The position numbers were made by a program, and so were the translations under genes. The notes below the pieces were generated by a model. It made no database searches. It worked only from the letters and a program-made list of their open reading frames with translations, and was not told the DNA's origin. This document shows, piece by piece, positions 31,921-53,485 of a DNA stretch of 64,000 bases. The DNA is from Candidatus Omnitrophota bacterium (GTDB lineage Bacteria > Omnitrophota > Gorgyraeia > Zapsychrales > JANLHA01). How positions within the stretch are numbered: position 1 is the stretch's first letter; every line of letters begins with the position of its first letter. The stretch is from positions 47,551 to 111,550 of the forward strand of contig JBFMEN010000069.1 of NCBI GenBank assembly GCA_040753435.1, read 5' to 3'.

Positions 31921-33621
31921 ATGAAATGGTTTACGCTTTATATCCTGCATCTGTTTTTGGTTTCAGCGGCCTTTGCGCAGACGGTTGATTTGGAACCAAT
32001 CCGGGTTGTTGGCGAAGGTGGTTATCAAGAAGTCCTCTCTTCCTATGAACCAGTTTCTCTTGCCGGTGATTTCTCAGGCATTGATATACAAGAGTTTACC
32101 GGCTATGGTTTTCTTCAGGATGTTTCAATTCGCGGAGGAATTTTTGAGGATACAAATACGCGATTAAATGGCATTTCTTTAAATAATCCCCAGACTGGGC
32201 ATTATCATCTTTCCCTTCCGGTCGTTTCAACAGATATCGAAGGTCTTAATGCCGATCTCAATCGTCAAACACTGAATTATAATTTGTTACTGCCTGTCCG
32301 TGAATCATCTTTTATCAGAATGGCGGGAGGGAACGGAGGTTTCGCCGAAAGCGTTTTATCCATGACACGCAAGGCCCAAGATTCTTTCCATCGTTTTTCA
32401 ATAGAAGGAACACGCGCTGACGGCCTCCTCGACGAAACTGACGGTTTTCGTTCGGCTGCGTCTTATACCCTTAATCATCAGGGGTCTTACAATGACTTTT
32501 TCCTTTACACGGCCGTTTCAGAAAAAAAGTTCGGAGTTGGAGGCGCATACTCAGCCCCTTGGTATATGAAAGAAGAGGAGCATTTGAAACAAGAGCTGTT
32601 CATGGCAAAGTGGACATCCCATAAGGAAATCGATTTTTCCATCGCTCCTTATGTCCATCGTACGCAAGACCTTTTTTTACTTGATCGGGATAATCCTTCC
32701 TTTTACAGAAATGATCATACGACATTTGTCAGCGGAAACATTATTGAATTATACGACACTCAAACAGGTCGTTACGGGACTTTTGAGTTTCAGCGGGAAG
32801 ATATTCGTTCGACGAATTTAGATGAACATCAACGGTTTTCATATGCGTTTGACGCCGGAATCAAGGAAGGGGAATATGGTGGGTGGCTTTACGAAGGAGG
32901 GCTCAGAGCCCGGTATTTCGATCGGTTTCCTTTTAAATTAATGCCTCATTTGGGCGTTGGATATCGTGTTACCAATTTTTGGAAAGTTCAAATCAAGGCC
33001 AATCGAAGCTTCCGCCAGCCATCGTTCACGGAATTGTATTATGATTCTCCAACAAATATCGGGAATGCCAATCTTGAGTTGCAGCAGAGCGACAACATCG
33101 AACTGGGAACTTCCTATGAAACGAATGAATTCAGATTTTATTTCGACGGCTTCTATAGGCGTCAACAAAATACGATTGACTGGGTGAGGGACAGCGGTGC
33201 GGTTCAATATCAGGCGATTAATACCGGGAAGGTCAATGTCAGAGGTTTTGACATCGGCATTGGAACAGCTATTAATTTGATTATTTTTGACCGGATGGAT
33301 CTTGCATACACCAGGCTCAATGTGAATAAGGAAAAACTTTATGACGTTTCCAAATATGTTTTTGATTACCTCCGTGACAGGGCCGTCCTTAAACTGTCAA
33401 GCGGGAAGGGCAAGTGGGGGTGGTCAGTCAATTCCGTTTATGAATATCATATTAGCCTTGGTGACAGAATAATCTTTTCAGCAGAAGGGGATTATCGCGT
33501 CAGTAATGATTCGCGTGTTTTTATTGCCGCCGACAATATCCTTGATGAGGATTATGAAGAGTTCTCCTTTATCCAGGGCAGTCCTTTTTTTATCAAAGCC
33601 GGACTTGAGATGTATTTTTAA
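31921..33621 (+). CDS. TonB-dependent outer-membrane receptor (short form)
   Basis: Signal peptide ending AFAQT, a plug-like N-terminal region (LEPIRVVGEGG...FLQDVSIRGG...LNGISLN), a long beta-barrel region and C-terminal ...GLEMYF. Confidence 0.65.
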   Translation: MKWFTLYILHLFLVSAAFAQTVDLEPIRVVGEGGYQEVLSSYEPVSLAGDFSGIDIQEFTGYGFLQDVSIRGGIFEDTNTRLNGISLNNPQTGHYHLSLPVVSTDIEGLNADLNRQTLNYNLLLPVRESSFIRMAGGNGGFAESVLSMTRKAQDSFHRFSIEGTRADGLLDETDGFRSAASYTLNHQGSYNDFFLYTAVSEKKFGVGGAYSAPWYMKEEEHLKQELFMAKWTSHKEIDFSIAPYVHRTQDLFLLDRDNPSFYRNDHTTFVSGNIIELYDTQTGRYGTFEFQREDIRSTNLDEHQRFSYAFDAGIKEGEYGGWLYEGGLRARYFDRFPFKLMPHLGVGYRVTNFWKVQIKANRSFRQPSFTELYYDSPTNIGNANLELQQSDNIELGTSYETNEFRFYFDGFYRRQQNTIDWVRDSGAVQYQAINTGKVNVRGFDIGIGTAINLIIFDRMDLAYTRLNVNKEKLYDVSKYVFDYLRDRAVLKLSSGKGKWGWSVNSVYEYHISLGDRIIFSAEGDYRVSNDSRVFIAADNILDEDYEEFSFIQGSPFFIKAGLEMYF

Positions 33622-36318: not shown

Positions 36319-37080
36319 ATGATGAAACAATTTCTACGAACTGAATTGTTGCTGGGAAAAGATCGGGTGAGGACATTGCATCATCGAAAGGTTGCGGTGA
36401 TCGGTTTAGGTGCTGTCGGAAGTTATGCAGTGGAGGCCCTGGCACGGGCAGGTGTTGGCAATTTCTTTTTAGTTGATTGCGATGTAATTGAAGAAAGCAA
36501 TATAAATCGCCAGCTTTATGCGCTGCATTCAACTGTCGGGCAGGACAAGGTTCAGGTCGCCCGTGAGCGGGTTCTGGACATAAATCCGAAATGCCGGGTA
36601 AAAGTTGAACGAATATTCATGCATCATTATTCAATCGGTGCAGTCTTTGCCTTTGAGCCGGATTTGATTGTTGATGCTGTTGATTCTTTAAATGCAAAAG
36701 TAAGTATTCTGGCCGAGATTCACCGCCGGGGAGTTCCGGTAATATCATCAATGGGGGCAGCCCTGAGAAAAGACCCGTCAAAAATCAAATTTGGCGATAT
36801 CAGCCACACCTGGGGATGCCCGCTTGCCAAATCTGTCCGAAAGCGTTTGAGAAGGCTTGGTATTCGTGAAGGAATTTCTTGTGTTTACTCAACAGAGGAA
36901 GTTCCTGCGCTGGCGGAAGCAGAAGGCGGGGAGGAGACGATTGAATCTGTTGAAAAACCAGGCGAAAATTTTCAAGGTCGACCAAGGCGTCCTTTGGGAA
37001 GTCTTCCAACAGTATGCGGGATATTCGGTTTAACGGTTGCCCATTATGCTGTTGAACTGCTGATCAAGGAAAAAATATAG
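36319..37080 (+). CDS. tcdA: tRNA threonylcarbamoyladenosine dehydratase (ThiF/MoeB E1-like, TcdA/CsdL)
   Basis: LRTELLLGKDRVRTLHHRKVAVIGLGAVGSYAVEALARAGVGNFFLVDCDVIEESNINRQ matches the TcdA N-terminus and Rossmann motif. Confidence 0.8.
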   Translation: MMKQFLRTELLLGKDRVRTLHHRKVAVIGLGAVGSYAVEALARAGVGNFFLVDCDVIEESNINRQLYALHSTVGQDKVQVARERVLDINPKCRVKVERIFMHHYSIGAVFAFEPDLIVDAVDSLNAKVSILAEIHRRGVPVISSMGAALRKDPSKIKFGDISHTWGCPLAKSVRKRLRRLGIREGISCVYSTEEVPALAEAEGGEETIESVEKPGENFQGRPRRPLGSLPTVCGIFGLTVAHYAVELLIKEKI

Positions 37081-37370
37081 ATTTTTTTGCCGTAAAAGTA
37101 GAAAAATGTCATTAAAAGTTCCCTCAAACTATGTTTTTTTATTTTTTTTGGAGTATAGTTATTGACCGAGTAAGGCCATACTCTGATCACACAGATCGCC
37201 CTTGGACTTAAAACGTTCAGGGGCTTTTTTATTTTAATGAGCTGGCTTGGTGCAGGAACGGCTTTTTTTATTGAAATGAGTACGGATAGGCTTTAAGACA
37301 CGATCAACAGTGGCGGGTGAGATTGTTTGCAAGGGTAACAAGAAATATGAGTCAATTAGTTTTTGTGCGT

Positions 37371-37398
37371 TTGCCTTGTTTTTTTCATAGTTTATAAT
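37371..37398 (+). promoter_or_regulatory. Putative sigma70-type promoter for the giant-protein genes
   Basis: TTGCCT (37371-37376), a 16-nt spacer, then TATAAT (37393-37398). It lies inside a 374-bp AT-rich non-coding region about 55 nt upstream of the ATG at 37455. Confidence 0.35.
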
Positions 37399-37454
37399 AT
37401 ATACTTTAATAAAATTTTTATCCGCCAGGCAGAATAATCGGAAACAGGCTCCGA

Positions 37455-40313
37455 ATGAATTTCCAAAAGCAAAAATTTCATACTTTTTTCAGAGTACTCG
37501 CCATGAGCATTCTTGTGCCTTTCGTGTTTTCGGTCGTTTGCCCAGCTGCGTTTACGCCGGCTTTTGCTCAAACAGTCCTTAATCTGCCTGCCCCCGGGAC
37601 AATGATCTCACCAAGTCCCGGATACAATCCGGCAACGATTGTCGGGATGACGGTCCATCCGGATGACCCGTTTTTGTTTGATTTCATTGTTCATCCGGGT
37701 GACGACAAACTTGAGGGAGAGAATCTGCAAAGAGAATCGCTGAAGATGGTCCGGTATTTTATGGCTGCATTGACAGTTCCTGAAGATGAGATGTGGGTCA
37801 ACCTCTCGCCTTATGAAAAAGACCGCATTGTTCCTGTAGGTTTTGGCGATACGGAGATGGGAAGGGATCTACTGGCCCAGGATTATATCCTGAAACAAAT
37901 GACGGCATCTTTAATGCATCCTGGGGAAAAATCGGGAAGCGAATTCTGGACGCGTATACGGGAAAAGGTAAGGGAAAAATTCGGGACAAATGAAATTCCC
38001 GTGAACACATTTAACAAAGTCTGGATCGTTCCGGACAAGGCCACGGTGTATGCCAGCGGAAGCCGTGTTTTTGTCGTGGATAGTCACTACAAGGTCATGC
38101 TGGAGCAAGATTATTTTGCCATGAAAAGCCATTCCGGATCTTCAGAAAATGGGAAAAACCTGGCAGTCCATGGGGAGTCCGGGAATGAAAGGGCAGATGA
38201 ACTGTCAAAAAAAATCACCCGGGAAATCATTCTTCCCGCGATCGAGCGGGAGATCAATGAAGGCCGGACTTTTGCCAATCTCCGCCAGATATCAAATGCG
38301 GTGATCCTTGCGACATGGTACAAACGTCATGTCGTTGGCGGAGCTCTTGAATTATTTTACGCTGACAAAAATAAAACCGCCGGGATCAGCAACGGGGATA
38401 AGGAGATCACCGAAAAAATTTATAATCAGTATGTCGAATCGTTCAGGAAGGGTGTCTATCATTTCATCAGGGAAGAGTACGATGAGACAACCCGGGAAGT
38501 CATCCCGCGGGAGTATTTTTCAGGAGGAGTTGTGCAGAAAATCGCGGATATGGATACGGCCGGTGACATGGGCGAGCTGGAAGAGACCATTCGCGGGAGT
38601 TCGGAATTCCAGATCCGGTTTGATCCGGTTAGAGTAAAGGAAGACGGGCAGGACGCGGCGATGTTAACGTCTGAGGAGGTCGCGCGGATGCTGGAAGAGT
38701 CGAACCAAGATTACTATTCGCGGTTAGGGGTTGATAAATCGGCCGATAAAGCGGCGATAAAGGCAGCTTACCGGAAGTTGATTATGAAATGGCATCCGGA
38801 CAAGAATGGCGATACATCCGGAGATCTTAAAGATTCGTTTACAGAAATAGCCCAGAATCTTTCCGAGGCCTGGGAAATATTACAGGATGAAGAGCGACGA
38901 AAAATTTATGACGAGGGAGGTCTGGGAAGGGGTGCAGCCGGTTTTGGGCAAGAAGAAGATTTTAATTTCGATGAATTTTTCAGCCAGTACCGGTGGAAGG
39001 CGCCCCGAACCCTGGATGAGATTTTGCGTGATCTTGATTCGGATAATAAAAAGGTATCTTTTCAATCTCTCGGAGAAATTGAAAAGATGATCCGCGAGGA
39101 GAGATGGCATGAATTTTCACCAGAGTCTGTTGAAGAGGTAAAGAATCTTATTGCATCAATAAAGCGGATTAAGGATGGGCATGTCCGGATGAGAGCGGTT
39201 GAGGCGCTGGGACGAGTGGCCAGAAAAGAATTTGTGACCCTTTCCGGGGGGCTCGGACGTTGGAACAATTATGAAGGGGATCAGGAAGAGACGCCCCAAA
39301 CTCTTGCGACAAACGGTTTGATTGAAATCCTTCAAACCGATGATGACCCTTCTGTTTCATATTCTTCAGTCAATACTTTAGCAGAGATCGGAGGGGTGAC
39401 TGCGACGGAAGCTCTGGTCCGGAATGTCAATCATCCTCATTCGGCAACTCAAAAATTGATCAGGTGGGTTTTAATTGCCTTGGGGAACAACACGGCTTAT
39501 CCCGGGAAAGAGACATCGCGTTTGACAGTCCGTTTGCTGAATAAAAGTCTTTTATTCGGCAAACGGCAGATACAGGCCGCCGTTAAAAATATTCTGGATG
39601 AGATTAGGGAAGAATTCAAACAACCGGTTGATATGACTCCCCGCAAAATGGCGATCACTCGCGTCCTGGGGGATTTGTCGAACGGATGGAATGACGGGCG
39701 CGAGGGGCGCGGGACTTTTAAACTGCACAGCCCGGAGTATGATGACTATAATTACATGGAGTCGCTGGAATTTAATATCATTTTATACGCAGAGCCTTTT
39801 TATCAAGGAGAGGTGGAGGAAGTTTTCAAGATCCTTGATGAGCTTAAAGAGCGTTTTCCGGCGCTGATTGTGAAGTTTGTTGAAGATGAAGAGATCACAG
39901 CCTTCGGGCTGCATCTCCTGGGGAATGACGAGGCGCTTGCGCACATGAACTTCCGGGGTAAAGTTGAGCAATGGCTCCGGGACAGGCTTGAGGAGGTTCT
40001 TACCGAGGAAGGGATGGATGGAGGAACTGGAGATCAGGATTCGGCCATGCTGGGAGACGGGGGAAGAGCAGACAATTTTTTTCAAAGTGGTGAGGATACA
40101 AAAGGCGGTATTGATTTAAACCCGGCTCATATTGATATTGAGACGAAACAGGCGGACAGTAAAGAAATTATTTTTTCTCTCGGAAGCGGTGTTCCGTTTA
40201 TGGATTCGATTGAAGGTTTTCAGCCGGTCATTATTCACGTTGCGCCGGTGACAAATATTCCAGGACTTCTTGGCCGTAAGGAAGATCCGGAGGAATTTTC
40301 GACGAAGTCCTGA
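37455..40313 (+). CDS. Large exported/membrane-anchored hypothetical protein (952 aa): conserved N-terminal domain shared with the next gene, internal DnaJ (J) domain, HEAT-like helical repeats, acidic linker and conserved C-terminal 'GGIDL' tail
   Basis: N-terminal hydrophobic signal ending AFAQT. Residues ~60-400 are paralogous to the next ORF (WVNLSPYEKDRIVP; LLAQDYILKQMT; FNKVWIVPDKA; VMLEQDY; NEGRTFANLRQISNAVILATWYKR; IPREYFSGG). A canonical J-domain lies at 38709..38920 (DYYSRLGV...KWHPDKNGD...WEILQDEERRKIYDEGG). It ends with GGIDLN...FQPVIIHVAPVTNIPG. Confidence 0.6.
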   Translation: MNFQKQKFHTFFRVLAMSILVPFVFSVVCPAAFTPAFAQTVLNLPAPGTMISPSPGYNPATIVGMTVHPDDPFLFDFIVHPGDDKLEGENLQRESLKMVRYFMAALTVPEDEMWVNLSPYEKDRIVPVGFGDTEMGRDLLAQDYILKQMTASLMHPGEKSGSEFWTRIREKVREKFGTNEIPVNTFNKVWIVPDKATVYASGSRVFVVDSHYKVMLEQDYFAMKSHSGSSENGKNLAVHGESGNERADELSKKITREIILPAIEREINEGRTFANLRQISNAVILATWYKRHVVGGALELFYADKNKTAGISNGDKEITEKIYNQYVESFRKGVYHFIREEYDETTREVIPREYFSGGVVQKIADMDTAGDMGELEETIRGSSEFQIRFDPVRVKEDGQDAAMLTSEEVARMLEESNQDYYSRLGVDKSADKAAIKAAYRKLIMKWHPDKNGDTSGDLKDSFTEIAQNLSEAWEILQDEERRKIYDEGGLGRGAAGFGQEEDFNFDEFFSQYRWKAPRTLDEILRDLDSDNKKVSFQSLGEIEKMIREERWHEFSPESVEEVKNLIASIKRIKDGHVRMRAVEALGRVARKEFVTLSGGLGRWNNYEGDQEETPQTLATNGLIEILQTDDDPSVSYSSVNTLAEIGGVTATEALVRNVNHPHSATQKLIRWVLIALGNNTAYPGKETSRLTVRLLNKSLLFGKRQIQAAVKNILDEIREEFKQPVDMTPRKMAITRVLGDLSNGWNDGREGRGTFKLHSPEYDDYNYMESLEFNIILYAEPFYQGEVEEVFKILDELKERFPALIVKFVEDEEITAFGLHLLGNDEALAHMNFRGKVEQWLRDRLEEVLTEEGMDGGTGDQDSAMLGDGGRADNFFQSGEDTKGGIDLNPAHIDIETKQADSKEIIFSLGSGVPFMDSIEGFQPVIIHVAPVTNIPGLLGRKEDPEEFSTKS

Positions 40314-40366
40314 CGAAATAATTTTACGTCCGGCCAACCGCCGTAGCAGGCTTTCTGTTAAAGACG

Positions 40367-43300
40367 TTGTCTAAAAAAGGGGAGGAAATTAACTTGTGTA
40401 ATAAAAACATGAACAGGCAAAAATTACCATTGCTGCACCGGTTATTTTCCGCGGGGCTAAGCTTTGTCATAACACTGACTTTTTCTATTCCTGTCCATGC
40501 CCAGGAGGGGCTTGCCCTGAATGGAGTTGCGGCGTCTCCAATGCCGGTTTCCGTGGCGGTAACTGCTGCCCCTGTTGAAAATCCGGCGTTCATTCTTTCA
40601 AAAAAACCGGCGAATGGGGATGCTCCCTTTGTCCCCGTGATGATCAAAGGGATTAAACTCTTTCCGGATGACCCTCTGCGCGTTGATTTTTTCATTGATA
40701 CCGGCACCTCCAAATTACCCGACGTTGTTTTGGAAAAAGAGTTCTCCAGATTGATCTCCTATTTTCTGGCGGCATTAACCGTCCCGGATGACGACCTGTG
40801 GGTTAATTTATCGCCGTATGAAGAAGACCGCGTCATCCCGGAGGAATTCAGCCGTACCGGGATGGGCGCAGATTTGCTCGCCCAGGATTATCTTTTGAAA
40901 CAAGTGACATCCGCGTTTCTTTCACCTGAGGGGGAATCCGGCAAAAAATTCTGGGACCGTATTCGTGAAAAAACAGCGGAGCTTTACGGTGAAAAAGATA
41001 TTCCTGTCGAAGTTTTCAATAAAGTCTGGATCGTCCCGGAAAAGGCCGTTGTGCATGAAAGTGCGGACGGAGCCTTTGTCACGGAAAGCACGCTGCAAGT
41101 CATGCTGGAGGAAGATTATTTAAGTACCACAGAGCCCGGGAATCCCAGTACCCCAAAAAAATCTTTGGCTGGGGATCAGGGGAGCAGGGGAACCGGGGCA
41201 CTTACAAAAGAAATCATGCGAGCCATAATCATCCCGGAAATCGAAAAAGAGGTCAATGAAGGAGAAATCTTCGCCCCGTTACGGCAAGTCTATAATGCGG
41301 TTATTCTGGCGGCATGGTTTAAACGGAATTTTAAAGAGACGTTCTTGGGGAAAGCTTATATCGATCAAAATAAAGTCGGCGGCATCGATACCGCCGACGC
41401 GTTGATCAAAGATAAAATTTATCAGCAATATGTCGATGCCTTTAAAGCCGGGGCGTATGATTTTATTAAAGAAGACTATGATCCGGTTTCGAACGAGATC
41501 ATTCCGAGGCAATACTTTTCCGGGGGGCTTAAACTTGATCCGGATGGGGCCTATACGGAAGAGCCCTCTGCGAACGAGCCCGTCAAAGTGACCGTAGACG
41601 GCGCCATGCTTTCCGCGTCAGTCAAGCTTTCCCCCGAGAAGAAACCGCCGGATGATCAAGGCCGCTCCTCTTCAGAAAGTTCAGAAACGGATGAGTATTT
41701 GCAATCAGTTAAAGAAAAAGCAATTGCGGCGGTTCTTGCGATGAGTACCGGAGAAAAGACGACCAGGAGCTCATGGACCGAGAAACTTCTGTCCCTCGCA
41801 GCTCCTTATGTGATCGATGATTTTCCCACGCTCTATTATGATCAAATCCAGGAAGCAGAACAGGTGAAAAGGGTTTTATTATTGATGATTCGTGTAGATC
41901 TTGTTGGTGCTGTCTATTTTTCAATACCTGTTGATGCTGAAGAAATGGATAAGTGGGAAGGAGAATTGCGAAGAATAAAACCATTCATTTTGGGAAGGGA
42001 AGACAGGAAAGAGATCGATGATTTGTTAGAACTGGTCGGATTTGTCCGTAAATGGCTTGGTTTTTTTGGATCTGAGGCCGACGCAACGTTTCATATCGAT
42101 CATTTGATAAAACATGGATTTTTAAGGGACACGTTCACTACAACCGCTGAAAAAGCGCTGAATTCTTTTTTTGACATTTTGCTGCGAGGCAGCATACCCC
42201 CGGATTTTGATGAGACTCCTTATAACGAATTGCTATGGTTTCTTAATGAATCGGCATCAAATGAGAAGCAAACTGAATTTTTTCAAATCCGTTCGGAGTT
42301 TATTCGAAGTTTTATCGCTGTTAAAGATGCCGTAATTTCCAGCAAAAATTTCAGCGCGTCTTTACAGCATTTGCGAAGAAATTCATTTTTTAACTTTTTT
42401 GTGTTTTGGAGCGATGATTTAAAAGAAAGAACAGAAAAATTTGATAAAAAATTATTAAAAGAAAAAGTGATTGCCATTAATTCTGATGGAATGACAGAGG
42501 GCGAACTTGATGAGATCGATCCGAATATCCGGGAAATCAAAGAGGGGATACAAAATATCCGGAAGGCCATACCCCATACGGTCGACAAGGCCTCCGTTCT
42601 GGACATTCTGCTGGGGGAAGGAAATGAGAAGGTGTCTGAAGAGTTTTTCAAGCTGGCGTCGTTGTTGCGGTTGAGTTTTTCCTATGAAGGCACATTTACT
42701 GACTCACGCCCGCCTCTTAAATACGCGCTGGAGGAAGGGATCTATTTTTCAATCGGACCTGATTTGTATATCACTCCGGTCACGGAGGCTTTTCGCCGGC
42801 CGATGATTTTTTCCAAAAATGCCGACGGCTCGATCAAGTTTGCATTTGAGATTGTCATCAGCGGCGAGCAGTTCAGTAAATTATATACCGGGGCCCGCAA
42901 CCGGTATGATGTTTCGCTTGAATTGAAGAAAACTTATCCGGACAAAGAATATGGCGTGCAACCGATTTATTTCAGAAAATTTCCGAAATATGCCTTCACA
43001 TTTTATGGCCGGAGACGGCTTCCTTTTCTTGTCAAACCGCTGGAAGTGATCGCTTTCGATTATCAATATGACGGCAAACGCCTGAACAATGTTTCTTCAG
43101 AAATGATAGCGGTGTGGGCGAATGAGTTAGGGATCAGTCAGAAAGACGTGGAGTTAATGATTGCCGAACAGGTTGTTGAGGAAGTGGTGGCCATGCATGC
43201 CATGGGCTATGTCGGCAACGGGGAGAATCGTTATTTTAAGGGTGTCCTGTCCTATGACCAGCATATTGAGAATTTCCGTTGTATCTTTGACCCAGCAGAC

Positions 43301-43951
43301 AGACTGAAGCCTGTAAAGATTCTGTATGTCGGTGACTTTGTGTATTTCGAGAAAGTGGATTCACCGGAACGAAGAAAAAATGATGTGCTCAGCATTGCCG
43401 GCGGAATTTGCCATAATATCCATGGGTTAAGAGATCTGTTTAAGATTCTCACTGTTGAAGACATTTACGCGCTGTTCAAAGAAAAATACGCTGAATTCGG
43501 GATCGCGGAGAAATATCCGGAAGGTCTTGCGGCATCATCAACAGTGAACGACAATGAAGTATTGACGGAGCCGGACTCTGATGCCGATGAAAATTCGGAC
43601 AATCCGGATGCTGAAGGCGATCAGAAGGGGGCGGCAAATTTTGACGAGCAAGATGGCGTTGAAATTTTAACTGAGCAAACTGACGCCGACATCCCGCATG
43701 CCAATAAAAATGATGCAGTTCCCGACGGGGTGCTAAACGGCGGCACTGCCGATTCCGCCGAAAAAGGCGGTATTGACCTTACTGCGGGCAGGCTTGGCCT
43801 TGAAGTCAAAGGAAACAAGGGACAACCTGCGCAGCCCTTTTGCCGGAAGGGTTCATGTGTGGATATGGAAAGTATGGATATCTCCGGATTTGTTCCTGTT
43901 ATTCTTCGCGTGTCGGTGGCTGATTTGCAAGGAATTCCTGGCAGTCACTAA
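40367..43951 (+). CDS. Large exported hypothetical protein (1194 aa): paralog of the previous gene (shared N-terminal domain and C-terminal 'GGIDL' tail), long unique helical middle region
   Basis: Signal peptide (..FSIPVHAQEG). The N-terminal ~400 aa align with the upstream protein (WVNLSPYEEDRVIP; LLAQDYLLKQVT; FNKVWIVPEKA; VMLEEDY; NEGEIFAPLRQVYNAVILAAWFKR; IPRQYFSGG). An acidic linker precedes a C-terminal GGIDLT...FVPVILRVSVADLQGIPG. The likely true start is TTG 40394 (after AGGGGAGG) or ATG 40409. Confidence 0.6.
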   Translation: MSKKGEEINLCNKNMNRQKLPLLHRLFSAGLSFVITLTFSIPVHAQEGLALNGVAASPMPVSVAVTAAPVENPAFILSKKPANGDAPFVPVMIKGIKLFPDDPLRVDFFIDTGTSKLPDVVLEKEFSRLISYFLAALTVPDDDLWVNLSPYEEDRVIPEEFSRTGMGADLLAQDYLLKQVTSAFLSPEGESGKKFWDRIREKTAELYGEKDIPVEVFNKVWIVPEKAVVHESADGAFVTESTLQVMLEEDYLSTTEPGNPSTPKKSLAGDQGSRGTGALTKEIMRAIIIPEIEKEVNEGEIFAPLRQVYNAVILAAWFKRNFKETFLGKAYIDQNKVGGIDTADALIKDKIYQQYVDAFKAGAYDFIKEDYDPVSNEIIPRQYFSGGLKLDPDGAYTEEPSANEPVKVTVDGAMLSASVKLSPEKKPPDDQGRSSSESSETDEYLQSVKEKAIAAVLAMSTGEKTTRSSWTEKLLSLAAPYVIDDFPTLYYDQIQEAEQVKRVLLLMIRVDLVGAVYFSIPVDAEEMDKWEGELRRIKPFILGREDRKEIDDLLELVGFVRKWLGFFGSEADATFHIDHLIKHGFLRDTFTTTAEKALNSFFDILLRGSIPPDFDETPYNELLWFLNESASNEKQTEFFQIRSEFIRSFIAVKDAVISSKNFSASLQHLRRNSFFNFFVFWSDDLKERTEKFDKKLLKEKVIAINSDGMTEGELDEIDPNIREIKEGIQNIRKAIPHTVDKASVLDILLGEGNEKVSEEFFKLASLLRLSFSYEGTFTDSRPPLKYALEEGIYFSIGPDLYITPVTEAFRRPMIFSKNADGSIKFAFEIVISGEQFSKLYTGARNRYDVSLELKKTYPDKEYGVQPIYFRKFPKYAFTFYGRRRLPFLVKPLEVIAFDYQYDGKRLNNVSSEMIAVWANELGISQKDVELMIAEQVVEEVVAMHAMGYVGNGENRYFKGVLSYDQHIENFRCIFDPADRLKPVKILYVGDFVYFEKVDSPERRKNDVLSIAGGICHNIHGLRDLFKILTVEDIYALFKEKYAEFGIAEKYPEGLAASSTVNDNEVLTEPDSDADENSDNPDAEGDQKGAANFDEQDGVEILTEQTDADIPHANKNDAVPDGVLNGGTADSAEKGGIDLTAGRLGLEVKGNKGQPAQPFCRKGSCVDMESMDISGFVPVILRVSVADLQGIPGSH

Positions 43952-44084
43952 GCCGGGACGAGTTGAGGCGTCTTCTCAAAGTGCACAAATCGAACTCCCG
44001 ATCTTCTCCTGAATAAGCAGTGGCTTTTAATTGGCTGAAACAGAAAAAATTTTTAAAAATCGGCTTGATTTTTTTAAATGATAT

Positions 44085-44120
44085 GTTACTATTTATAGTA
44101 ACGTTACTACGAATAGAAAC
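44085..44120 (+). promoter_or_regulatory. Tandem 18-bp operator-like element upstream of trpE: a perfect palindrome plus a degenerate copy
   Basis: GTTACTATTTATAGTAAC (44085-44102) is a perfect 8-bp inverted repeat with a 2-nt spacer. It is followed directly by GTTACTACGAATAGAAAC (44103-44120). The pair lies 25-60 nt upstream of the probable trpE start. Half-sites ACTAT/ATAGT resemble the E. coli TrpR half-site ACTAGT. Confidence 0.4.
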
Positions 44121-44125
44121 ATTTA

Positions 44126-45544
44126 ATGCGTAACAGGAGCCAAATGTCTTTACCTGTTTATATCGAAACAATCCCGGCCGACCGATTTACTCCCGTTGTT
44201 GTTTTTAAGAAACTGAACGGAAAGGCGCTGCTGGAATCCGCAGTTCTTGAAATCGGCAAGAGCCGTTATTCGATTATCCTGGTTGAAGAGGCTTTTCGAT
44301 TGGTCCTTAATAACCGAGGCGTTTTAAAATACGAAGGATTGAAGGAAGAAATCCTTTCTCCGGATCCGCATAATTTTCTTTCTATTCTGGAGGGCCAGGG
44401 AAAAAACGTCGCATCATCGAAAGATTTTGGCATGCCGATTCCCGCTTCCGGAATAGGGTACCTCGGGTATGAAACAGCGGCGTTGTTTGACAAAATCCAT
44501 TTGTCAAAACAGGATGACGAACTTCAACTGCCCGATGCCATCTTTTTATTCGGATCACTGTTTATTGTCTTTGATCATTACAAGGATGAGCTTTACATCA
44601 TCGCTATTGATTATGACGGGCAGGGAAAAGAGAAAATTAAAACCGTTAAGGAACGGCTGATGGATTTTGATTTCAGGGCGTATCAAACCGATGAAAATTT
44701 TTATCATTGCACCGGACAGATTGAAGCCGGTAAAGAGGCGTATATCAGCGGAGTCAAAAAATTGAAAGAACACATCCGCGCCGGAGATATTGTTCAGGGC
44801 GTTCTTTCCCGGAGAATCACGATAAAAACTTTCCTGGATCCCCTTGATGCCTACTGCCGTTTAAGACGTATTAACCCCTCGCCGTATTTGTTTTATTTTG
44901 ACTTCACTGATTTTAAATTATTTGGCTCTTCACCCGAACTCATGGTTTCCTATAATGACGGGACAGCTACGATCAAACCGATTGCGGGGACCCGTTCCCG
45001 GGGGAAAACGCGCCAGGAAGACATTGCTTTGGAAAAAGATTTGCTGGCTGACGAAAAGGAGCGCGCTGAACATTTGATGCTCGTTGATCTTGCGCGGAAT
45101 GATTTGGGACGAACGGCAAAACCCGGGACGGTGAGTCCCAGATCGTTATATTCGGTGGAGCGGTATTCCCACGTCATGCATATTGTGTCGGAGATTGGAT
45201 CACAGGTGGCCAGAGACTATAACGCGTATGACCTCATAAGAACGACCTTTCCGGCTGGAACAGTGACCGGCGCTCCTAAAATCAAGGCGATGGAGCTGGT
45301 ATCTGATTATGAAAACGTCAAGCGGGGACCTTATGCCGGGCTGGTCGGCCATTTTGACATGAACGGAAATTTTGATTCATGCATAACGATCAGATCCATG
45401 ATCCATAAGGAAGGAACATATTATATTCAAGTCGGGGCCGGGATTGTTTATGATTCCGTACCGGAGCGGGAGTTTGACGAAACAATGAAGAAAGCAGGGG
45501 CGATGATCAGGTCTTTGGGAATAAATCTGGAGAGTGGTCTCTAG
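44126..45544 (+). CDS. trpE: Anthranilate synthase component I
   Basis: LMLVDLARNDLGR, FPAGTVTGAPKIKAMELVS and GPYAGLVGHFDMNGNFDSCITIRS. The start is probably the second Met at 44144 (RBS AGGAG at 44135). Confidence 0.85.
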   Translation: MRNRSQMSLPVYIETIPADRFTPVVVFKKLNGKALLESAVLEIGKSRYSIILVEEAFRLVLNNRGVLKYEGLKEEILSPDPHNFLSILEGQGKNVASSKDFGMPIPASGIGYLGYETAALFDKIHLSKQDDELQLPDAIFLFGSLFIVFDHYKDELYIIAIDYDGQGKEKIKTVKERLMDFDFRAYQTDENFYHCTGQIEAGKEAYISGVKKLKEHIRAGDIVQGVLSRRITIKTFLDPLDAYCRLRRINPSPYLFYFDFTDFKLFGSSPELMVSYNDGTATIKPIAGTRSRGKTRQEDIALEKDLLADEKERAEHLMLVDLARNDLGRTAKPGTVSPRSLYSVERYSHVMHIVSEIGSQVARDYNAYDLIRTTFPAGTVTGAPKIKAMELVSDYENVKRGPYAGLVGHFDMNGNFDSCITIRSMIHKEGTYYIQVGAGIVYDSVPEREFDETMKKAGAMIRSLGINLESGL

Positions 45545-45563
45545 GCCGATAAAAGCGAGGTTA

Positions 45564-47186
45564 ATGATGATTCTTATGATTGATAATTATGATTCATTTA
45601 CGTACAACATTGTTCAACTTGTTGAGACTCTGGGCTATAAAGTCAAATCGGTGCGTAATGATGAAATCACCTTGGATGAAATCGGCCGGATGAAGCCTTC
45701 ACACATCATTATTTCACCTGGGCCGGGAGATCCATCAGATGCCGGTATTTCGCTTAAAGTTATCCGTCGCTTTGGCTCAAAGATTCCAATCCTTGGCGTT
45801 TGTCTTGGTCATCAATGCATCATCCAGGCTTACGGCGGAAAAATTATCGGCGCGCAAAAAATTGTTCATGGAAAAACTTCGCAAATTGTGCATGACAACA
45901 AAGGACTTTTCCGTAATATTCCTCAAAATGCCGCAGTTGTCCGGTACCATTCATTGTGTGGCGATCCGGTTTCATTGCCGGAATGCCTTGAAGTGACCGC
46001 TGAGACGATTGACGATAAGACGATTATGGGCGTTCGTCACCGTAACTATCAGGTGGCGGGAGTGCAATTTCATCCCGAATCGATCGGTACGGAAATAGGC
46101 AGAAAACTAGTTCAGAATTTTTTTAATTATAAAATTGAGGAGCCGCAGAAGTTCGCGTTATTAAGCAAACTGATGCAAAAGACAAACTTAACGTTGATGG
46201 AAAGTTATGCTTTGATGGATGAGGTTACCGATGGCGAATTAACGGAAAGTCAACTGGGGGCTTTTCTGGGAGCGTTAAATGTCAAAGGCGTTACGCCGAC
46301 TGAATTAACTGGTTTTGTCCGTGTGCTTCGGGAGAAGACAGGAGTTCAATCCCAATTGAAAGGGTTGATCGATACGTGCGGAACCGGCGGTGACGGCAAG
46401 CATACCTTCAATATTTCAACGGCAGCTTCTCTTATTTGCGGGGCTGCCAATCTGAAAGTGGCCAAGCATGGTAATCGGGCGATGAGTTCAAAATCGGGAA
46501 GTTTTGACTTTTTAGACGCGCTGGGAATTGAAACCCAGGGGGATTTGAAAACCAATTTGTCTTCCATTCGAGAAAATAACTTCGCTTTCTTTTTTGCCCA
46601 AAAATTTCATGCCGCAATGCGCCATGTGGCAAAAACGCGCCAGGAGCTTAAGACCCGGACCGTCTTTAATATGATAGGTCCGCTCGCCAATCCGATGCCG
46701 CTGACCTATCAAATAACCGGTGTTTTTTCTTCCGGGATTCTGGATTTGTTTATTGAGACCATGAAAAAACTTGGAAGAAAACACGCGATGGTAGTTCATT
46801 CATGTGACGGGCTTGATGAAATAAGCGTGTGTGAAAAGACTATGGTCAGGGAATTGAAAAATGGTAAAATTCTGGCGTATGAGATCGACCCAAAAGATTA
46901 CGGAATCCCGGGTTTCAGCCTGAAAGATCTGGAAGGGAAATCCGCTTTGGACAACGCGGAAGTTTTTAGGCGTATCATCGGAAAGAAGAAACTGCCCAGA
47001 CGATTTTCGGCGATTAAATCTGCGATTTGTTTGAATGCAGGCGCTGCTATTTATGTCGGGAATAAGGCTAAGACGATCAGGGAAGGATATGAAGCCGCGT
47101 TGAGGATTATTGAAAGTAAAAATTTTGAAAATTATATACAAAGGCTTGCCAGGCGGCAGACTGGCGCCGGGACTGGTCGTAAGTGA
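45564..47186 (+). CDS. trpGD: Anthranilate synthase component II (glutamine amidotransferase) fused to anthranilate phosphoribosyltransferase (TrpG-TrpD)
   Basis: Class I GATase (ILMIDNYDSFTYNIVQ; GVCLGHQ; catalytic H...E region), then TrpD motifs (CGTGGDGKHTFNISTAAS; GNRAMSSKSGSFD). The ATG at 45564 follows AGCGAGG. Confidence 0.85.
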   Translation: MMILMIDNYDSFTYNIVQLVETLGYKVKSVRNDEITLDEIGRMKPSHIIISPGPGDPSDAGISLKVIRRFGSKIPILGVCLGHQCIIQAYGGKIIGAQKIVHGKTSQIVHDNKGLFRNIPQNAAVVRYHSLCGDPVSLPECLEVTAETIDDKTIMGVRHRNYQVAGVQFHPESIGTEIGRKLVQNFFNYKIEEPQKFALLSKLMQKTNLTLMESYALMDEVTDGELTESQLGAFLGALNVKGVTPTELTGFVRVLREKTGVQSQLKGLIDTCGTGGDGKHTFNISTAASLICGAANLKVAKHGNRAMSSKSGSFDFLDALGIETQGDLKTNLSSIRENNFAFFFAQKFHAAMRHVAKTRQELKTRTVFNMIGPLANPMPLTYQITGVFSSGILDLFIETMKKLGRKHAMVVHSCDGLDEISVCEKTMVRELKNGKILAYEIDPKDYGIPGFSLKDLEGKSALDNAEVFRRIIGKKKLPRRFSAIKSAICLNAGAAIYVGNKAKTIREGYEAALRIIESKNFENYIQRLARRQTGAGTGRK

Positions 47187-47211
47187 ACAGTCCTTCGATA
47201 ACACGACGTCT

Positions 47212-48420
47212 ATGAGTAAATATTTTGGACAATTCGGCGGACAGTATGTGGGCGAGGTTTTAAAACCCGCGCTGATCGAACTTGAGAAAGCGGTGCGGGA
47301 TATTTTACCCTCAGCAGATTTTCAAAATAATCTTGGCGAAATGCTGAAGAATTATGCCGGCCGTCCGACACCGTTATATTTCGCAGAGAATGCTACGCGT
47401 GATCTGAATGGAGCAAAAGTTTATATTAAACTTGAAGGTTTAGCGAACACCGGCGCGCATAAAATTAACAATGCCCTTGGACAGGTGCTGCTTGCGAAAA
47501 AAATGGGGAAACGGAGGGTGATCGCTGAAACCGGCGCTGGGCAACATGGGGTGGCAACCGCGGCAGCCGCCGCCAAGCTCGGACTGGAATGTGAAGTTTT
47601 TATGGGCGCGGTTGATGTTCGGAGACAACAGCCGAATGTTTTTTTGATGAAACAATATGGAGCAACGGTGACTGAAGTAAACGAAGGGACGCGGACGTTA
47701 AAAGATGCCGTGAACCGCGCCTTGAAAGAATGGGCTGTTCGCTCTAATGACACTTTCTATGTGCTCGGCTCGGCCCTGGGTCCGTATCCTTATCCTGATA
47801 TGGTTCGTGAATTCCAGTCTGTTATCGGGAGGGAGATCCGTGATGAAATCCTTAAACGAGAAGGCCGCCTGCCGGATATTTTGATCGCCTGCTGCGGCGG
47901 AGGATCCAACGCGATAGGGACATTTACATCATTTATGAATGATGCGCTGGTCAAAATGATCGCGGTTGAAGCCGGCGGCACTGGTGATAAACCGGGTGAG
48001 CATGCAACACGGATGAAGGGGGCCGGACGGCTCGGGATCATTGAAGGGTATAAATCATTTTTCCTCCAGGATGAAGATGGTCAGGTCCTTCCGACCCACT
48101 CCATATCTGCCGGGCTTGATTATGCAGGGATCGGACCGCAGGTGGCCTTGATGGGAGTTGAGGGGCGTATTCAATTTGAAAAGGCTTGTGATCAGGAGGT
48201 CCTGAAGGCGTATCAGTATTTCGCCAGAAAAGAAGGTTTGCTATTCGCCCTTGAATCTGCACATGCAGCCGCACACGCGTTAAAAATCATTCCCGGGTTA
48301 TCAAAGAATCAAATTGTAGTGATTACAATGTCGGGCCGCGGAGACAAGGATATTTTTATTACTGCCAAAGAACTGTACACGGAAGAGTGGAAGAAGTTTT
48401 TAAAAAATGAAAGCAATTAG
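47212..48420 (+). CDS. trpB: Tryptophan synthase beta subunit
   Basis: FGQFGGQYV at the N-terminus, PLP-lysine region GLANTGAHKINNALGQ and GGGSNAIG. The true start is the ATG at 47212; the listed ORF at 47110 overlaps trpD. Confidence 0.9.
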   Translation: MSKYFGQFGGQYVGEVLKPALIELEKAVRDILPSADFQNNLGEMLKNYAGRPTPLYFAENATRDLNGAKVYIKLEGLANTGAHKINNALGQVLLAKKMGKRRVIAETGAGQHGVATAAAAAKLGLECEVFMGAVDVRRQQPNVFLMKQYGATVTEVNEGTRTLKDAVNRALKEWAVRSNDTFYVLGSALGPYPYPDMVREFQSVIGREIRDEILKREGRLPDILIACCGGGSNAIGTFTSFMNDALVKMIAVEAGGTGDKPGEHATRMKGAGRLGIIEGYKSFFLQDEDGQVLPTHSISAGLDYAGIGPQVALMGVEGRIQFEKACDQEVLKAYQYFARKEGLLFALESAHAAAHALKIIPGLSKNQIVVITMSGRGDKDIFITAKELYTEEWKKFLKNESN

Positions 48421-48446
48421 CAGCCAGCCGCAGGGCAGGAGTTATT

Positions 48447-49181
48447 ATGTCTATCAAAATCATGACCCATCTTGTCGCGGGATTTCCTGATCCTGATGGT
48501 TTCAGAAAGGCCCTGAAGGGACTCAAAGAAGGAGGTTCGGATATCCTGGAGCTTCAGATCCCATTTTCTGATCCAACGGCTGATGGACCAGTCATCACTA
48601 ATGCCTGTGAGCAAGCTATTGCGCGTGGTTTTAAAGTCCACCAGACTTTTGATTATATTCAACAGGCCAGACAGGAAGGGTTTGAGCGAATTATAGTTAT
48701 GACCTACGCCAATATAGCCTTTAATTACGGGATAAAGAAATATGTCGTTGATTTAAAAAGTGCGGGTGTTGAGGCGGCCCTTGTCCCTGATCTGCCGCTG
48801 GAAGATGAAGAAGGATTTTATCAATGTGCTTTTGAAAACGGTTTGGAACCCATGCCGGTTGCCGTGGTTGGAATGCCGGCCGGGCGACTGGAGCTGTTGA
48901 ATGGGAAACCGTTTAAAAAGATCTACATTTCTCTTCGCGCCGGGACGACTGGAAAAACAACCGATATTTCTCAAGAAACCCAGGAGTTTCTAGATACCTT
49001 ATCGAAGTATGAACGTTTCGCCGGATTCGGCATCAGGTCACGCGAACAGGTTCAGTTGCTGCAAGGCCATGCTGAGGCGGCGGTTATCGGATCTTATTTT
49101 ACGTCATTGATTCAAGATGCCTGCTTGAGCAAAAAGGATATTGGCAGGGAATTAAAATCAGCAATGAGCATCTTGAAATAA
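48447..49181 (+). CDS. trpA: Tryptophan synthase alpha subunit
   Basis: LVAGFPDPDGF...LELQIPFSDPTADGPVI matches the TrpA N-terminus. Confidence 0.8.
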   Translation: MSIKIMTHLVAGFPDPDGFRKALKGLKEGGSDILELQIPFSDPTADGPVITNACEQAIARGFKVHQTFDYIQQARQEGFERIIVMTYANIAFNYGIKKYVVDLKSAGVEAALVPDLPLEDEEGFYQCAFENGLEPMPVAVVGMPAGRLELLNGKPFKKIYISLRAGTTGKTTDISQETQEFLDTLSKYERFAGFGIRSREQVQLLQGHAEAAVIGSYFTSLIQDACLSKKDIGRELKSAMSILK

Positions 49182-49230
49182 TTTCAACCCTTCAATTGAT
49201 ATTTAAATTTCCTTCTGTTACCATTTCCGT

Positions 49231-51165: not shown

Positions 51166-51768
51166 CGCTATTTCAAGTGACAGAATCTGGAAGGCGTAAA
51201 CGCTGATGATGGCCCAAATGATGAAGTTGTGAAAAGGGATTTTAAAAGCAAGGATCACATCAATGAAAATAAAAATGATGAGACCTGTGCGCCCGTACTG
51301 GTTCATCCTGACAATTAAATCAACCATAGAAAAGGCATGAAGCTCGCTGGAAAGTTTTTCGGAAAGTTCGAAAAGAGACATTCTTTCTAAAGATTCTTTT
51401 GGATAGCGCCGTTCAATGATAGGAAGGATTGTGTTTTTGATGAAATGCCGTTCCTTACTTTCGAAAATCAGCATGATGATAAAAATTAATGTGGCTGCGG
51501 CAAGTATGGCGGGGTGAAAAAGATTTCTGGCGGTGATGGCAACAATGAGTGCAGACAGAACCATTTTTAAGGACAGCCCGGCTGTATGGATTATCGAGAT
51601 TGTTTGTTTCCCTGAGACGGGGCTTTTTTTGATGATTTGAAGCGACCAGTAACGTGCAGCCAAATCGTTGAAGATAGTCGCAGCGATCATTCTTGAAGAA
51701 GAGAGTTTAGCCGCTGTTTTTGGAACAGGAATTATTAATTGCCCGGTTGATTGTTGAGGATTTTCCAT
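51127..51768 (-). CDS. Hypothetical polytopic membrane protein
   Basis: A 213-aa ORF with at least four hydrophobic helices and no recognised motif. Convergent with the rSAM gene, with a ~39-nt 3' overlap. Confidence 0.4.
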   Translation of the reverse strand: MENPQQSTGQLIIPVPKTAAKLSSSRMIAATIFNDLAARYWSLQIIKKSPVSGKQTISIIHTAGLSLKMVLSALIVAITARNLFHPAILAAATLIFIIMLIFESKERHFIKNTILPIIERRYPKESLERMSLFELSEKLSSELHAFSMVDLIVRMNQYGRTGLIIFIFIDVILAFKIPFHNFIIWAIISVYAFQILSLEIALMQKTRQKALPY

Positions 51769-52724: not shown

Positions 52725-53284
52725 AAATAAAAGCCTGCAATTTTTTCTTTGATTGAATCCGAGGTTTCTTTGTTTAAGAGTTTTGCGATTATGGCCAGGG
52801 CAAACTGAATCGCAGTTCCTGCACCCCGGCTGGTGATGACGTTGCTGTCGATTACGACAGCTTCCTCGACGAATACCGTAGATTCATTAAAAGAATCTTC
52901 CATGCCGGGAAAACATGTTGCTTTTTTTCGATCCAAGATACCGGCCGGAGCAAGCACCAGGGCCGGCGCTGCGCAAATAGCGGCAATGAGTTTCTTTTCA
53001 CGGTTCATTATTGTTAAAAAGGAACTAACCAAATCGGATTTCGCGAGATTGGGTGAGCCCGGAGTTCCGCCGGGTAAAATACAGGCATCAAAGTCTGAGC
53101 CGGCACTCTCCAAAGCGATATCTGTCTTGATGGCAATGCCGTGGGAACCCGTTACAAAATTTTCTTTGTTATTCAATCCTGCAATCATCACGTCAATGCC
53201 GGCCCGGCGAAGGATATCAATGGGAGTAACTGCTTCAATTTCTTCAAAACCGTCCGCCAAAATAATCAACGCGCTTTTTTTCAT
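52721..53284 (-). CDS. DJ-1/PfpI (ThiJ/YajL) family protein
   Basis: ALIILADGFEEIEAVTPIDILRRAGIDV..., nucleophile elbow AAICAAP and ...ITSRG. Start taken at MKKSAL; AAAGG lies 9 nt upstream on the minus strand. Confidence 0.8.
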   Translation of the reverse strand: MKKSALIILADGFEEIEAVTPIDILRRAGIDVMIAGLNNKENFVTGSHGIAIKTDIALESAGSDFDACILPGGTPGSPNLAKSDLVSSFLTIMNREKKLIAAICAAPALVLAPAGILDRKKATCFPGMEDSFNESTVFVEEAVVIDSNVITSRGAGTAIQFALAIIAKLLNKETSDSIKEKIAGFYL

Positions 53285-53485
53285 AACAACCGACCTTTTG
53301 TTAATACATTCATTTTCCGAATTCATATGTCAAATAATTCGTATGTGATGAATAATTTTAGATGAAAAAAAGTTTTTTTACAACCCATTTCACGTCCAAG
53401 GATTTTTCTTGAAAATTTTTTTAAAATGACATAAAGTAGTGGCAATCCGGCAATCGGGCTGGTTTGAAATTGAAAGGGGGATGGT

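Follow-up and report, generated by a model that had tools for sequence, protein, structure and literature searches.

The 64,000-nucleotide stretch analyzed here, referred to as the window, comes from a metagenome-assembled genome (MAG) of a Candidatus Omnitrophota bacterium (GenBank assembly GCA_040753435.1, contig JBFMEN010000069.1, positions 47,551 to 111,550 of the forward strand). It carries two large consecutive open reading frames on the plus strand, ORF1 and ORF2, whose products share a signal-peptide-like start, a conserved N-terminal domain (N-domain), and a small C-terminal module (C-module), with different cargo in between (Table 1). The two proteins belong to a very large, undescribed family that, going by MAG labels, is restricted to Omnitrophota, and its shared ends may serve to export whatever lies between them.

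An initial annotation, made from the sequence alone, had called both ORFs, and both are present, each identical in product to one of two adjacent NCBI proteins labeled "Candidatus Omnitrophota bacterium." Its length for ORF1 (952 residues) stands, whereas the 1,194 residues given for ORF2 hold only for the mechanical ORF opened at the first TTG, position 40367. The ORF2 start is most likely the ATG at 40409, which matches the identical 1,180-residue NCBI protein; an alternative in-frame TTG at 40394 lies 8 nt 3′ of a GGAGG.

BLASTP aligns the two products at 163 of 377 positions (43% identity; E = 7e-97) across ORF1 residues 2 to 359, and every near-identical block quoted in the initial annotation is found in both. 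The further claim that they diverge completely past the N-domain did not hold, since the C-module of about 65 residues is also common to them. At the DNA level, only 366 nt can be aligned, with 69% identity, and no significant DNA repeat was found within positions 36900 to 44300. Given this low identity and the lack of long repeats, ORF1 and ORF2 are old paralogues. A recent local duplication, identical in nucleotide sequence and without wider conservation, is ruled out, and the shared domain is conserved far beyond the locus.

Table 1. Features of ORF1, ORF2, and the upstream region (positions in the window; a slash marks the putative cleavage site)
Feature	Positions	Strand	Details
ORF1	37455..40313	+	952 aa; family member with J-domain/HEAT cargo; identical to NCBI MEW5895946.1
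ORF1 Sec-type signal-peptide-like segment, aa 1-38	37455..37568	+	...TPAFA/QT; heuristic, not SignalP; holds the protein's only Cys
ORF1 conserved N-domain, aa 39-358	37569..38528	+	Ends IPREYFSGG; 43% identical to ORF2; 42 invariant columns in 60 sequences
DAAML, aa 400-404, border of ORF1 N-domain and cargo	38652..38666	+	
ORF1 J-domain, aa 419-486	38709..38912	+	Intact HPD (aa 447); Pfam PF00226, E 7.5e-20; starts at DnaJ profile position 1, followed by G/F-rich stretch
ORF1 HEAT_2 repeats, aa 620-682	39312..39500	+	Pfam PF13646, E 2.6e-7; 31.3 bits vs cutoff 27.7
DSAML, aa 862-866	40038..40052	+	17 aa before start of ORF1 C-module (aa 882)
ORF1 C-module, aa 882-949	40098..40301	+	KGGIDLNP...GFQPVIIHVAPVTNIPGLLG plus acidic tail; family C-module profile E 3.5e-19
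ORF2	40409..43951	+	1,180 aa from ATG 40409; identical to NCBI MEW5895947.1
ORF2 signal-peptide-like segment	40409..40501	+	MNRQKLPLLHRLFSAGLSFVITLTFSIPVHA/Q; heuristic reading
ORF2 N-domain	40502..41527	+	Divergent member; LNLPxPGTM motif absent, Ala/Pro/Val-rich insert in its place
DGAML after ORF2 N-domain	41597..41611	+	
ORF2 cargo, about 716 aa	41612..43759	+	Orphan; sole match among 5.8 billion proteins is itself
ORF2 C-module	43760..43933	+	KGGIDLTAG...GFVPVILRVSV; divergent, almost no tail; profile E 5.9e-9; BLASTP to ORF1 C terminus E 7e-4
Terminator-like hairpin and T-run	37198..37224	+	Closes upstream ThiF-family gene; consensus scan only; 10-bp stem, 6 GC pairs, TTTTTTATTT tail
Promoter-like TTGCCT-16-TATAAT	37371..37398	+	57 nt 5′ of ORF1 start; 10/12 matches; only suggestive

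Conserved ends of the two proteins

The N-domain begins right after the signal-peptide-like segment and is recognized by the family blocks WVNLSPYE, LAQDYxLKQ, FNKVWIVP, NEGxxFAxLRQ, and IPRxYFSGG, all found in both ORFs. In 60 sequences aligned at about 50% identity, 42 columns are invariant, many of them W, Y, F, D, E, N, or Q, and all 42 are retained in ORF1 and ORF2; the best identity of the ORF2 domain to that of any other member is about 56%. The region had been described as not recognizable from any characterized family, a view that a well-characterized Pfam domain would have overturned. Searches of Pfam, NCBIfam, PHROGs, and PADLOC gave no match, and neither did PDB sequences searched with phmmer and with a profile. 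An AlphaFold2 model built from the 60-sequence alignment is globular and mixed alpha/beta (mean predicted local distance difference test score [pLDDT], 82.8; predicted template modeling score, 0.79), and a search of PDB folds with it found no structural match; as a predicted model, then, the N-domain has no known structural relative. Three leads were rejected: a DUF896 match at E = 0.044 is noise, a Huntingtin profile match falls in low-information linker columns, and a Ser-Lys catalytic dyad would need S152, which is not conserved in ORF2.

At the other end of the protein, 93 of the 113 ORF1 homologues finish in the same way, with GGI(D/N)(L/F)NP, about 35 residues, GFxPVIINItPvxNlPlLLG, and a short acidic tail; the remaining ones are apparently cut at contig ends. 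Both ORFs carry this module (GGI(D/N)(L/F)NP...GFxPVIINxxP), in divergent form in ORF2. In the full-length AlphaFold2 model of ORF1, with a mean pLDDT of 53.3, the start of the C-module (residues 881 to 900) reaches 75 to 81. Across the 79 loci retained for comparison, a hidden Markov model of the C-module matched only proteins with the N-domain, or ORFs truncated by the edge of the locus or split by a frameshift. The C-module is thus found only alongside the N-domain, making the two an obligatory pair, which we call the bracket.

A family with exchangeable cargo

The N-domain query matched at least 1,165 proteins and the full-length ORF1 query 3,746 of the 8,000 candidates scored, the latter a lower bound; the named matches of both were almost all labeled "Candidatus Omnitrophota" or "Omnitrophica." When 1.84 billion cluster representatives were searched exhaustively with a profile, 8,400 clusters matched at E ≤ 1e-3, of which 6,826 also passed E ≤ 1e-30. 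In the 150 top matches listed, the N-domain occupies residues 1 to about 380, and the longest protein has 5,312 residues. A scan of one genome per species confirmed at least 583 genomic stretches with a member. Consistent with the initial annotation, which had proposed a module behind the signal peptide that carries differing cargo and acts in export, anchoring, or binding, thousands of Omnitrophota proteins have the N-domain in front of unrelated cargo.

All 79 retained loci come from Omnitrophota MAGs or from ENA MAGs labeled "uncultured Planctomycetales" or "bacterium." Many lie in the same genome, at least eight in the isolate OFTM38 and at least five in SMAG_U7936, and the MAG of this window holds at least three further members (AB1650_06520, AB1650_07125, and AB1650_08840). 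Tandem pairs on the same strand occur at 14 of the loci. Two family fragments, P0016 and P0059, are on contigs of about 2 kb that NCBI labels Heimdallarchaeota and Pacearchaeota; these contigs, like the "uncultured Planctomycetales" MAGs, likely reflect mis-binning or labeling artifacts, and they would bear on the restriction to the phylum. We rejected an origin in phages or mobile elements: just three IMG/VR contigs (L082 to L084) carry a member, and no phage genes were recognized among the six neighboring ORFs scanned on L082 and L084. These three contigs are probably host DNA or misclassified. The neighbors on L084 include one Lcl_C protein and one radical S-adenosylmethionine (SAM)/SPASM protein.

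Neither the family nor its motifs were found described in the literature we searched. Because, in addition, no curated model or solved fold covers either element of the bracket, we regard the parts of the family as new in kind, whereas the overall logic has analogues, considered below.

What lies inside the bracket differs widely. The ORF1 cargo starts with a J-domain, 15 residues past the DAAML motif. ORF1 has a full-length orthologue, P0122, at 46% identity, cargo included. Searches with the ORF2 cargo came up empty in Pfam, NCBIfam, PHROGs, PADLOC, and PDB sequences. In other members, we find enzymes, namely, phosphoglycerate kinase (PGK), triosephosphate isomerase (TIM) with class I aldolase, PGI, ROK, UDP-glucose pyrophosphorylase, radical SAM with B12-binding domains, and NUDIX with aldo-keto reductase, as well as macro, ankyrin, HEAT, histidine kinase ATPase, and RNA polymerase alpha-subunit C-terminal (alpha-CTD) domains; in about two-thirds of cargo regions, Pfam finds no domain. 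The enzymes have diverged: P0233, for instance, has a complete PGK that scores only 122 bits against Thermotoga PGK. When the glycolytic fusions were checked for a place in housekeeping operons, those with PGK and with TIM/aldolase proved to lie outside glycolytic operons.

Cargo is also exchanged rapidly. Among 163 complete proteins, just 6% of the pairs whose N-domains are at least 80% identical have cargo in common; P0209 and P0280, for example, are 97% identical in the N-domain and 78% in the C-module, with cargo that is unrelated and of different length. Some cargos bring a signal of their own, at residues 360 to 420 or so, just past the N-domain or a punctuation motif: a Tat-like RREFFQLSAAGLASVGVGAV (RREFFQLSAAG...) in P0189, a lipobox-like LAICSGGAC in P0138, and Sec-like segments in P0136, P0144, and P0156. 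Such signals, together with an ORF1 J-domain that begins at position 1 of the DnaJ profile, suggest in-frame capture of whole genes. We also noted P0017 (432 residues, on a 2.4-kb contig), in which the N-domain is followed, at the C terminus, by the last 45 or so residues of ribosomal protein S9 (PF00380; 29.8 bits); it is either a bracketed ribosomal-protein cargo or a chimera of gene calling or assembly.

Two five-residue motifs punctuate the module borders, in a surrounding context that is not conserved. D-x-[AS]-M-[LIVMF] (DxAML) was observed 220 times, compared to 19.8 ± 4.4 in shuffled sequences, and [AGST]-S-S-P-[VILM] (SSPV) 161 times, compared to 3.1 ± 2.1; DxAML is 14 times as dense in family ORFs as in their neighbors. 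Typical positions are about 39 residues past the YFSGG that ends the N-domain and about 12 residues before GGIDLNP. In the 3,234-residue P0294, which has an RNA polymerase alpha-CTD near its end, twelve DAAML or DSAML motifs stand between modules at intervals of 100 to 300 residues, and the protein gives the impression of small modules strung together, with the motif between one and the next. Translation by hand showed that DxAML and SSPV do not derive from a single DNA motif through a change of frame or strand.

The genes around family members show little pattern. Apart from other family members, a response-regulator-type protein (9 of 79 loci), and trp genes (3 to 4 loci), no conserved partner was found. 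In the window, the context is one of housekeeping genes (ThiF, TatD, and the trp operon), with no secretion-system cluster. As the initial annotation had it, ORF1 follows a 374-bp AT-rich noncoding gap (37081 to 37454; 35.6% GC compared to 43.8% in the window). The promoter-like site and the upstream hairpin in this gap are compatible with a separate transcription unit, which is suggestive at best, since consensus matches of either kind are no more numerous in the region than expected from shuffled sequence. No Rfam family was found in the window.

Directly 3′ of ORF2 lies a trp operon (44126 to 49181) of trpE, a fused trpG-trpD (550 residues; GATase plus Glycos_transf_3), a trpB-like PALP enzyme, and trpA; trpC and trpF are not in this stretch. 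Trp genes also adjoin family members at three to four other Omnitrophota loci (e.g., L023, L026, and L018), and this position could reflect synteny. Ending at the trpE start codon is a 28-nt overlapping palindrome (ATGATATGTTACTATTTATAGTAACGTT...; within 44078 to 44127), which could be an operator or attenuator. Further on, a free-standing B12-binding radical SAM protein (49231 to 51165; 644 residues) has the domain pair that is bracketed cargo in P0137 and P0207; its gene overlaps the segment (49001 to 50000) with the lowest GC content (0.388) and the strongest negative AT skew (−0.278) of the window. The sole minus-strand gene block (51127 to 53326) encodes a GH18 glycosyl hydrolase, a DJ-1/PfpI protein, and an unannotated 213-residue ORF; the remainder is on the plus strand with continuously positive GC skew. 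Upstream of ORF1, a chorismate-binding domain fused to an aminotransferase class IV domain (PabB-PabC type; 29983 to 31758) is followed by a TonB-dependent-receptor-like beta-barrel (31921 to 33621), which shows that the organism has an outer membrane and is diderm.

Cysteine depletion and a possible export route

Both ORFs have the signal-peptide-like start that had been assigned to them: a positive n-region, a hydrophobic core, and an A-x-A/Q-type site (AFA/Q in ORF1 and VHA/Q in ORF2). With a heuristic of our own rather than SignalP, 317 members were screened, of which 179 could be scored at the N terminus. In these 179, the prepeptide has a median length of 38 residues, its n-region carries a net charge of +3, and its hydrophobic core is strong. 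At the putative cleavage site, residue −3 is small or aliphatic (V/A/S) and 126 of the 179 have Ala at −1; next come a conserved Q and LNLPxPGTM.

A second line of evidence is composition. Cysteine makes up 0.11% of family ORFs, compared to 1.17% of the non-family ORFs at the same loci (Mann-Whitney P = 5e-38) and 1.46% of the other 50 proteins of the window. Past residue 45, the family has 0.06%, compared to 0.72% in other signal-peptide-like neighbors, and 230 of 316 members have none. This holds in the largest proteins, with no cysteine in P0294 and three in a member of 5,312 residues; mature ORF1 has none and ORF2 has four (0.34%). Both radical SAM cargos keep their CxxxCxxC. The family is also richer in Asp and Glu and poorer in His. 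Depletion of cysteine is typical of proteins that cross the envelope unfolded or free of disulfides, such as autotransporter passengers and type I or III substrates, and is atypical of cytoplasmic enzymes. It therefore argues, independently of the prepeptide, that the proteins are indeed exported.

We imagine the following. With their parts in the order of cleavable-looking signal peptide, N-domain of about 320 residues, interchangeable cargo, and C-module of about 65 residues, members would be exported through Sec in a disulfide-free and probably unfolded state. N-domain and C-module would form an address and translocation device common to all paralogues, sending them on either to the surface of the cell or into prey or host cells attached to it. 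The work itself would fall to the cargo, a diverged, cysteine-purged copy of a cytoplasmic protein; in ORF1, the J-domain with its HPD might recruit an Hsp70 and the HEAT repeats bind partners. The DxAML and SSPV motifs at the borders are candidate processing or hinge sites and, purely by conjecture, may be cleaved to release modules. We put the probability of this reading as a whole, in which the shared ends export cargo to the surface or into prey or host cells, at about one-half.

Delivery into prey specifically is a more tentative proposition, less likely than not. A J-domain works with Hsp70 and ATP, nucleotides are required by PGK and ROK, and radical SAM enzymes depend on SAM and iron-sulfur (FeS) assembly. 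Cargo that depends on cytoplasmic partners, in proteins whose cysteine depletion speaks against the cytoplasm of the producer, would have its most economical destination in the cytoplasm of another cell or in cytosol spilled from prey. The proposed delivery fits the lifestyle of Candidatus Velamenicoccus archaeovorus, an omnitrophotan predatory epibiont (PMC12583861), and also the giant proteins of the phylum, which join signal peptides or transmembrane (TM) helices to "metabolic" domains and are predicted to be extracellular (10.1101/2023.11.21.568195; 10.64898/2026.06.07.730766).

Several points weigh against the export and delivery reading. All that is functional in it, export, cleavage, and delivery alike, is deduced from sequence, and the signal peptides are assigned by our own heuristic. 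The full-length ORF1 model is poor, the C-module matches no known sorting domain, and none of the 79 loci offers a recurrent neighbor that would suggest a dedicated transporter or protease. Of the 163 complete members, a strict regular expression finds a punctuation motif at the N-border in only 73 and at the C-border in only 64. In some members, the N-domain is immediately followed by hydrophobic segments or another signal, which complicates a single topology. Finally, cargo that depends on ATP, SAM, or FeS clusters has no obvious function in the periplasm or outside the cell unless it reaches another cytoplasm, and that last step is one of reasoning rather than observation.

The alternative that survives best is display on the surface of the producer. 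Here, the N-domain would bind the envelope (lipopolysaccharide, peptidoglycan, or an outer membrane protein), the C-module would be an outer membrane sorting signal, and the displayed cargo would act on prey surfaces or on the cytosol of lysed prey without being injected. The prepeptide and the cysteine depletion support this equally, the many aromatic, acidic, and amide residues among the 42 invariant positions are in keeping with it, and the organism, being diderm, has an outer membrane for such display; the logic resembles that of exoenzymes anchored by S-layer homology domains and of type IX secretion system (T9SS) cargo. Yet J-domains, RNA polymerase alpha-CTD, ROK kinases, PGK, and radical SAM/B12 enzymes need cytoplasmic partners or cofactors, and Pfam and NCBIfam contain no known anchor or sorting domain that matches. 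We consider display possible, if rather doubtful; nothing in the present evidence separates it from delivery into prey.

One can also envision a function in the inner membrane or periplasm of the cell itself, in which the hydrophobic N terminus would be either a normal signal peptide or an anchor that stays uncleaved, and the family would form a scaffold, periplasmic or tethered to the membrane, for the metabolism or envelope biogenesis of the cell. The N-terminal helix is modeled at good confidence, and the window places the genes among housekeeping genes rather than in a secretion-system cluster. That scaffold is improbable nonetheless: the small residues at −3 and −1 and the conserved Q at +1 resemble a signal peptidase I site, the periplasm lacks the ATP, Hsp70, SAM, and FeS assembly that much of the cargo needs, orphan and fast-swapping cargo is unlike that of housekeeping scaffolds, and the diverged PGK and TIM/aldolase fusions stand apart from glycolytic operons.

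Two further explanations are very unlikely. If the fusions were a by-product of evolution, either a gene capture or recombination cassette or decaying, pseudogene-like products with ends that are recombination handles and cargo that does nothing, then near-identical brackets around unrelated cargo, orphan cargo, and cargo that retains its own Tat-, lipoprotein-, or Sec-type signal just past a punctuation motif would be expected; however, ORFs of 1,000 to 5,000 residues stay intact, P0122 matches ORF1 through its cargo, conservation is at the protein level (42 invariant residues, with DNA identity of only 69%), and keeping functional motifs while purging cysteines needs selection on the protein. 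That these are cytoplasmic multidomain proteins with a nonfunctional "signal peptide," the conserved ends being an oligomerization or regulatory scaffold for cytoplasmic enzymes, would suit the cytoplasmic type of the cargo and its retained catalytic motifs (HPD and CxxxCxxC) but leaves unexplained a 10- to 20-fold cysteine depletion relative to neighbors in the same genome, seen even against other signal-peptide-like proteins, and the conservation of charged n-region, hydrophobic h-region, and AxA/Q among the scorable prepeptides.

Relation to known systems and significance

For the bracket as we read it, parallels exist, each covering part of the design. The closest in logic are the MARTX toxins, in which conserved N- and C-terminal ends flank swappable effector modules, linkers are processing sites, and cargo acting in the cytoplasm is delivered to another cell. 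MARTX toxins are type I secreted without a Sec signal, however, and have glycine-rich and RTX repeats and a cysteine protease domain, whereas ORF1 and ORF2 have a Sec-type N terminus and, in Pfam and NCBIfam searches, no HemolysinCabind/RTX or peptidase domain, and mature ORF1 has no cysteine; the N-flank in the family is a globular alpha/beta domain in the model, and the C-flank is only about 65 residues.

In its signal peptide, its Q at the predicted mature N terminus (+1), and its variable body ahead of a short conserved C-terminal domain that recurs in many paralogues, the family comes closest to type IX cargo. T9SS is a system of Bacteroidota, and its cargo has no obligatory 320-residue N-terminal domain, is not cysteine-free, and typically consists of extracellular hydrolases or adhesins; its C-terminal sorting domain (Por_Secre_tail/TIGR04183 type) gave no match at E ≤ 1 in Pfam or NCBIfam. 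Autotransporter (type V) passengers, which follow a Sec signal peptide and cross the outer membrane cysteine-poor and without disulfides, are the best match for the cysteine-poor body. Pfam detects neither a beta-barrel translocator (about 250 to 300 residues) nor a trimeric four-strand anchor in ORF1 or ORF2; the family instead ends in its C-module and, in most members, a hydrophilic acidic tail, and the mixed alpha/beta N-domain model contains no barrel. LapA-type adhesins come closest, by analogy, to the succession of N-module, short Ala-containing motif that could be a protease site, long variable body, and conserved C-terminal signal. They differ in having no Sec signal, in their RTX repeats and type I secretion, and in a body of adhesin repeats rather than enzymes, and no LapA-type homology was detected in Pfam or NCBIfam searches. 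Judged by these domain searches and architectures, membership fails for all four systems. Polymorphic toxins do not fit either, the variable part here being internal and the C terminus conserved, with a family member or trpE as the next gene and no recurrent small gene downstream.

Bacterial DnaJ/Hsp40 is related to ORF1 through the cargo. Residues 419 to 486 are a bona fide J-domain with HPD and a G/F-rich stretch after it, but the DnaJ model TIGR02349 matches only at profile positions 1 to 90, with 70.7 bits against a cutoff of 377.2, and the zinc finger and C-terminal client-binding domains are missing. By sequence, then, ORF1 is not a DnaJ orthologue, and the name "DnaJ domain-containing protein" covers its cargo only.

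The Omnitrophota giants, or "Archaeovorins," share the phylum, a signal peptide and/or TM helices, and a predicted extracellular location (10.1101/2023.11.21.568195; 10.64898/2026.06.07.730766). They draw on a similar set of cytoplasmic-type domains, some of it shared with the family (HEAT_2, radical SAM, NUDIX, methyltransferases, HATPase_c, and HAD), and the family itself reaches 5,312 residues. The N-domain, C-module, punctuation motifs, and cysteine depletion are not described in those two papers.

Fusions of this kind can mislead metabolic reconstruction, because a match to PGK, PGI, or TIM may be counted as glycolysis though it is cargo. Even if the bracket were only an anchor, a new domain family, a rule of keeping catalytic cysteines while purging the rest, and evolution by gene capture would still stand.

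Omnitrophota occur widely and have hardly been cultured; one member or more can kill archaea and bacteria, by a mechanism that is not known. With its thousands of proteins and many copies per genome, the family offers a concrete molecular entry to the way in which Omnitrophota interact with their hosts. In its fullest form, which we put forward tentatively, the bracket would mark the substrates of an unrecognized Omnitrophota export and delivery route by which these ultra-small predators or epibionts carry dozens of cysteine-free, retooled cytoplasmic proteins (J-domains, glycolytic enzymes, kinases, radical SAM enzymes, and transcription factor-like domains) into prey bacteria or archaea, with cargo acquired by in-frame gene capture, DxAML and SSPV as cleavage sites, and the giants of the phylum representing this architecture at its extreme. 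Should the bracket be a delivery device, it would define a new class of secretion substrates and offer a naturally occurring, modular means of transporting arbitrary proteins across membranes, and it would account for the Omnitrophota proteins with "metabolic" domains that are predicted to be extracellular.

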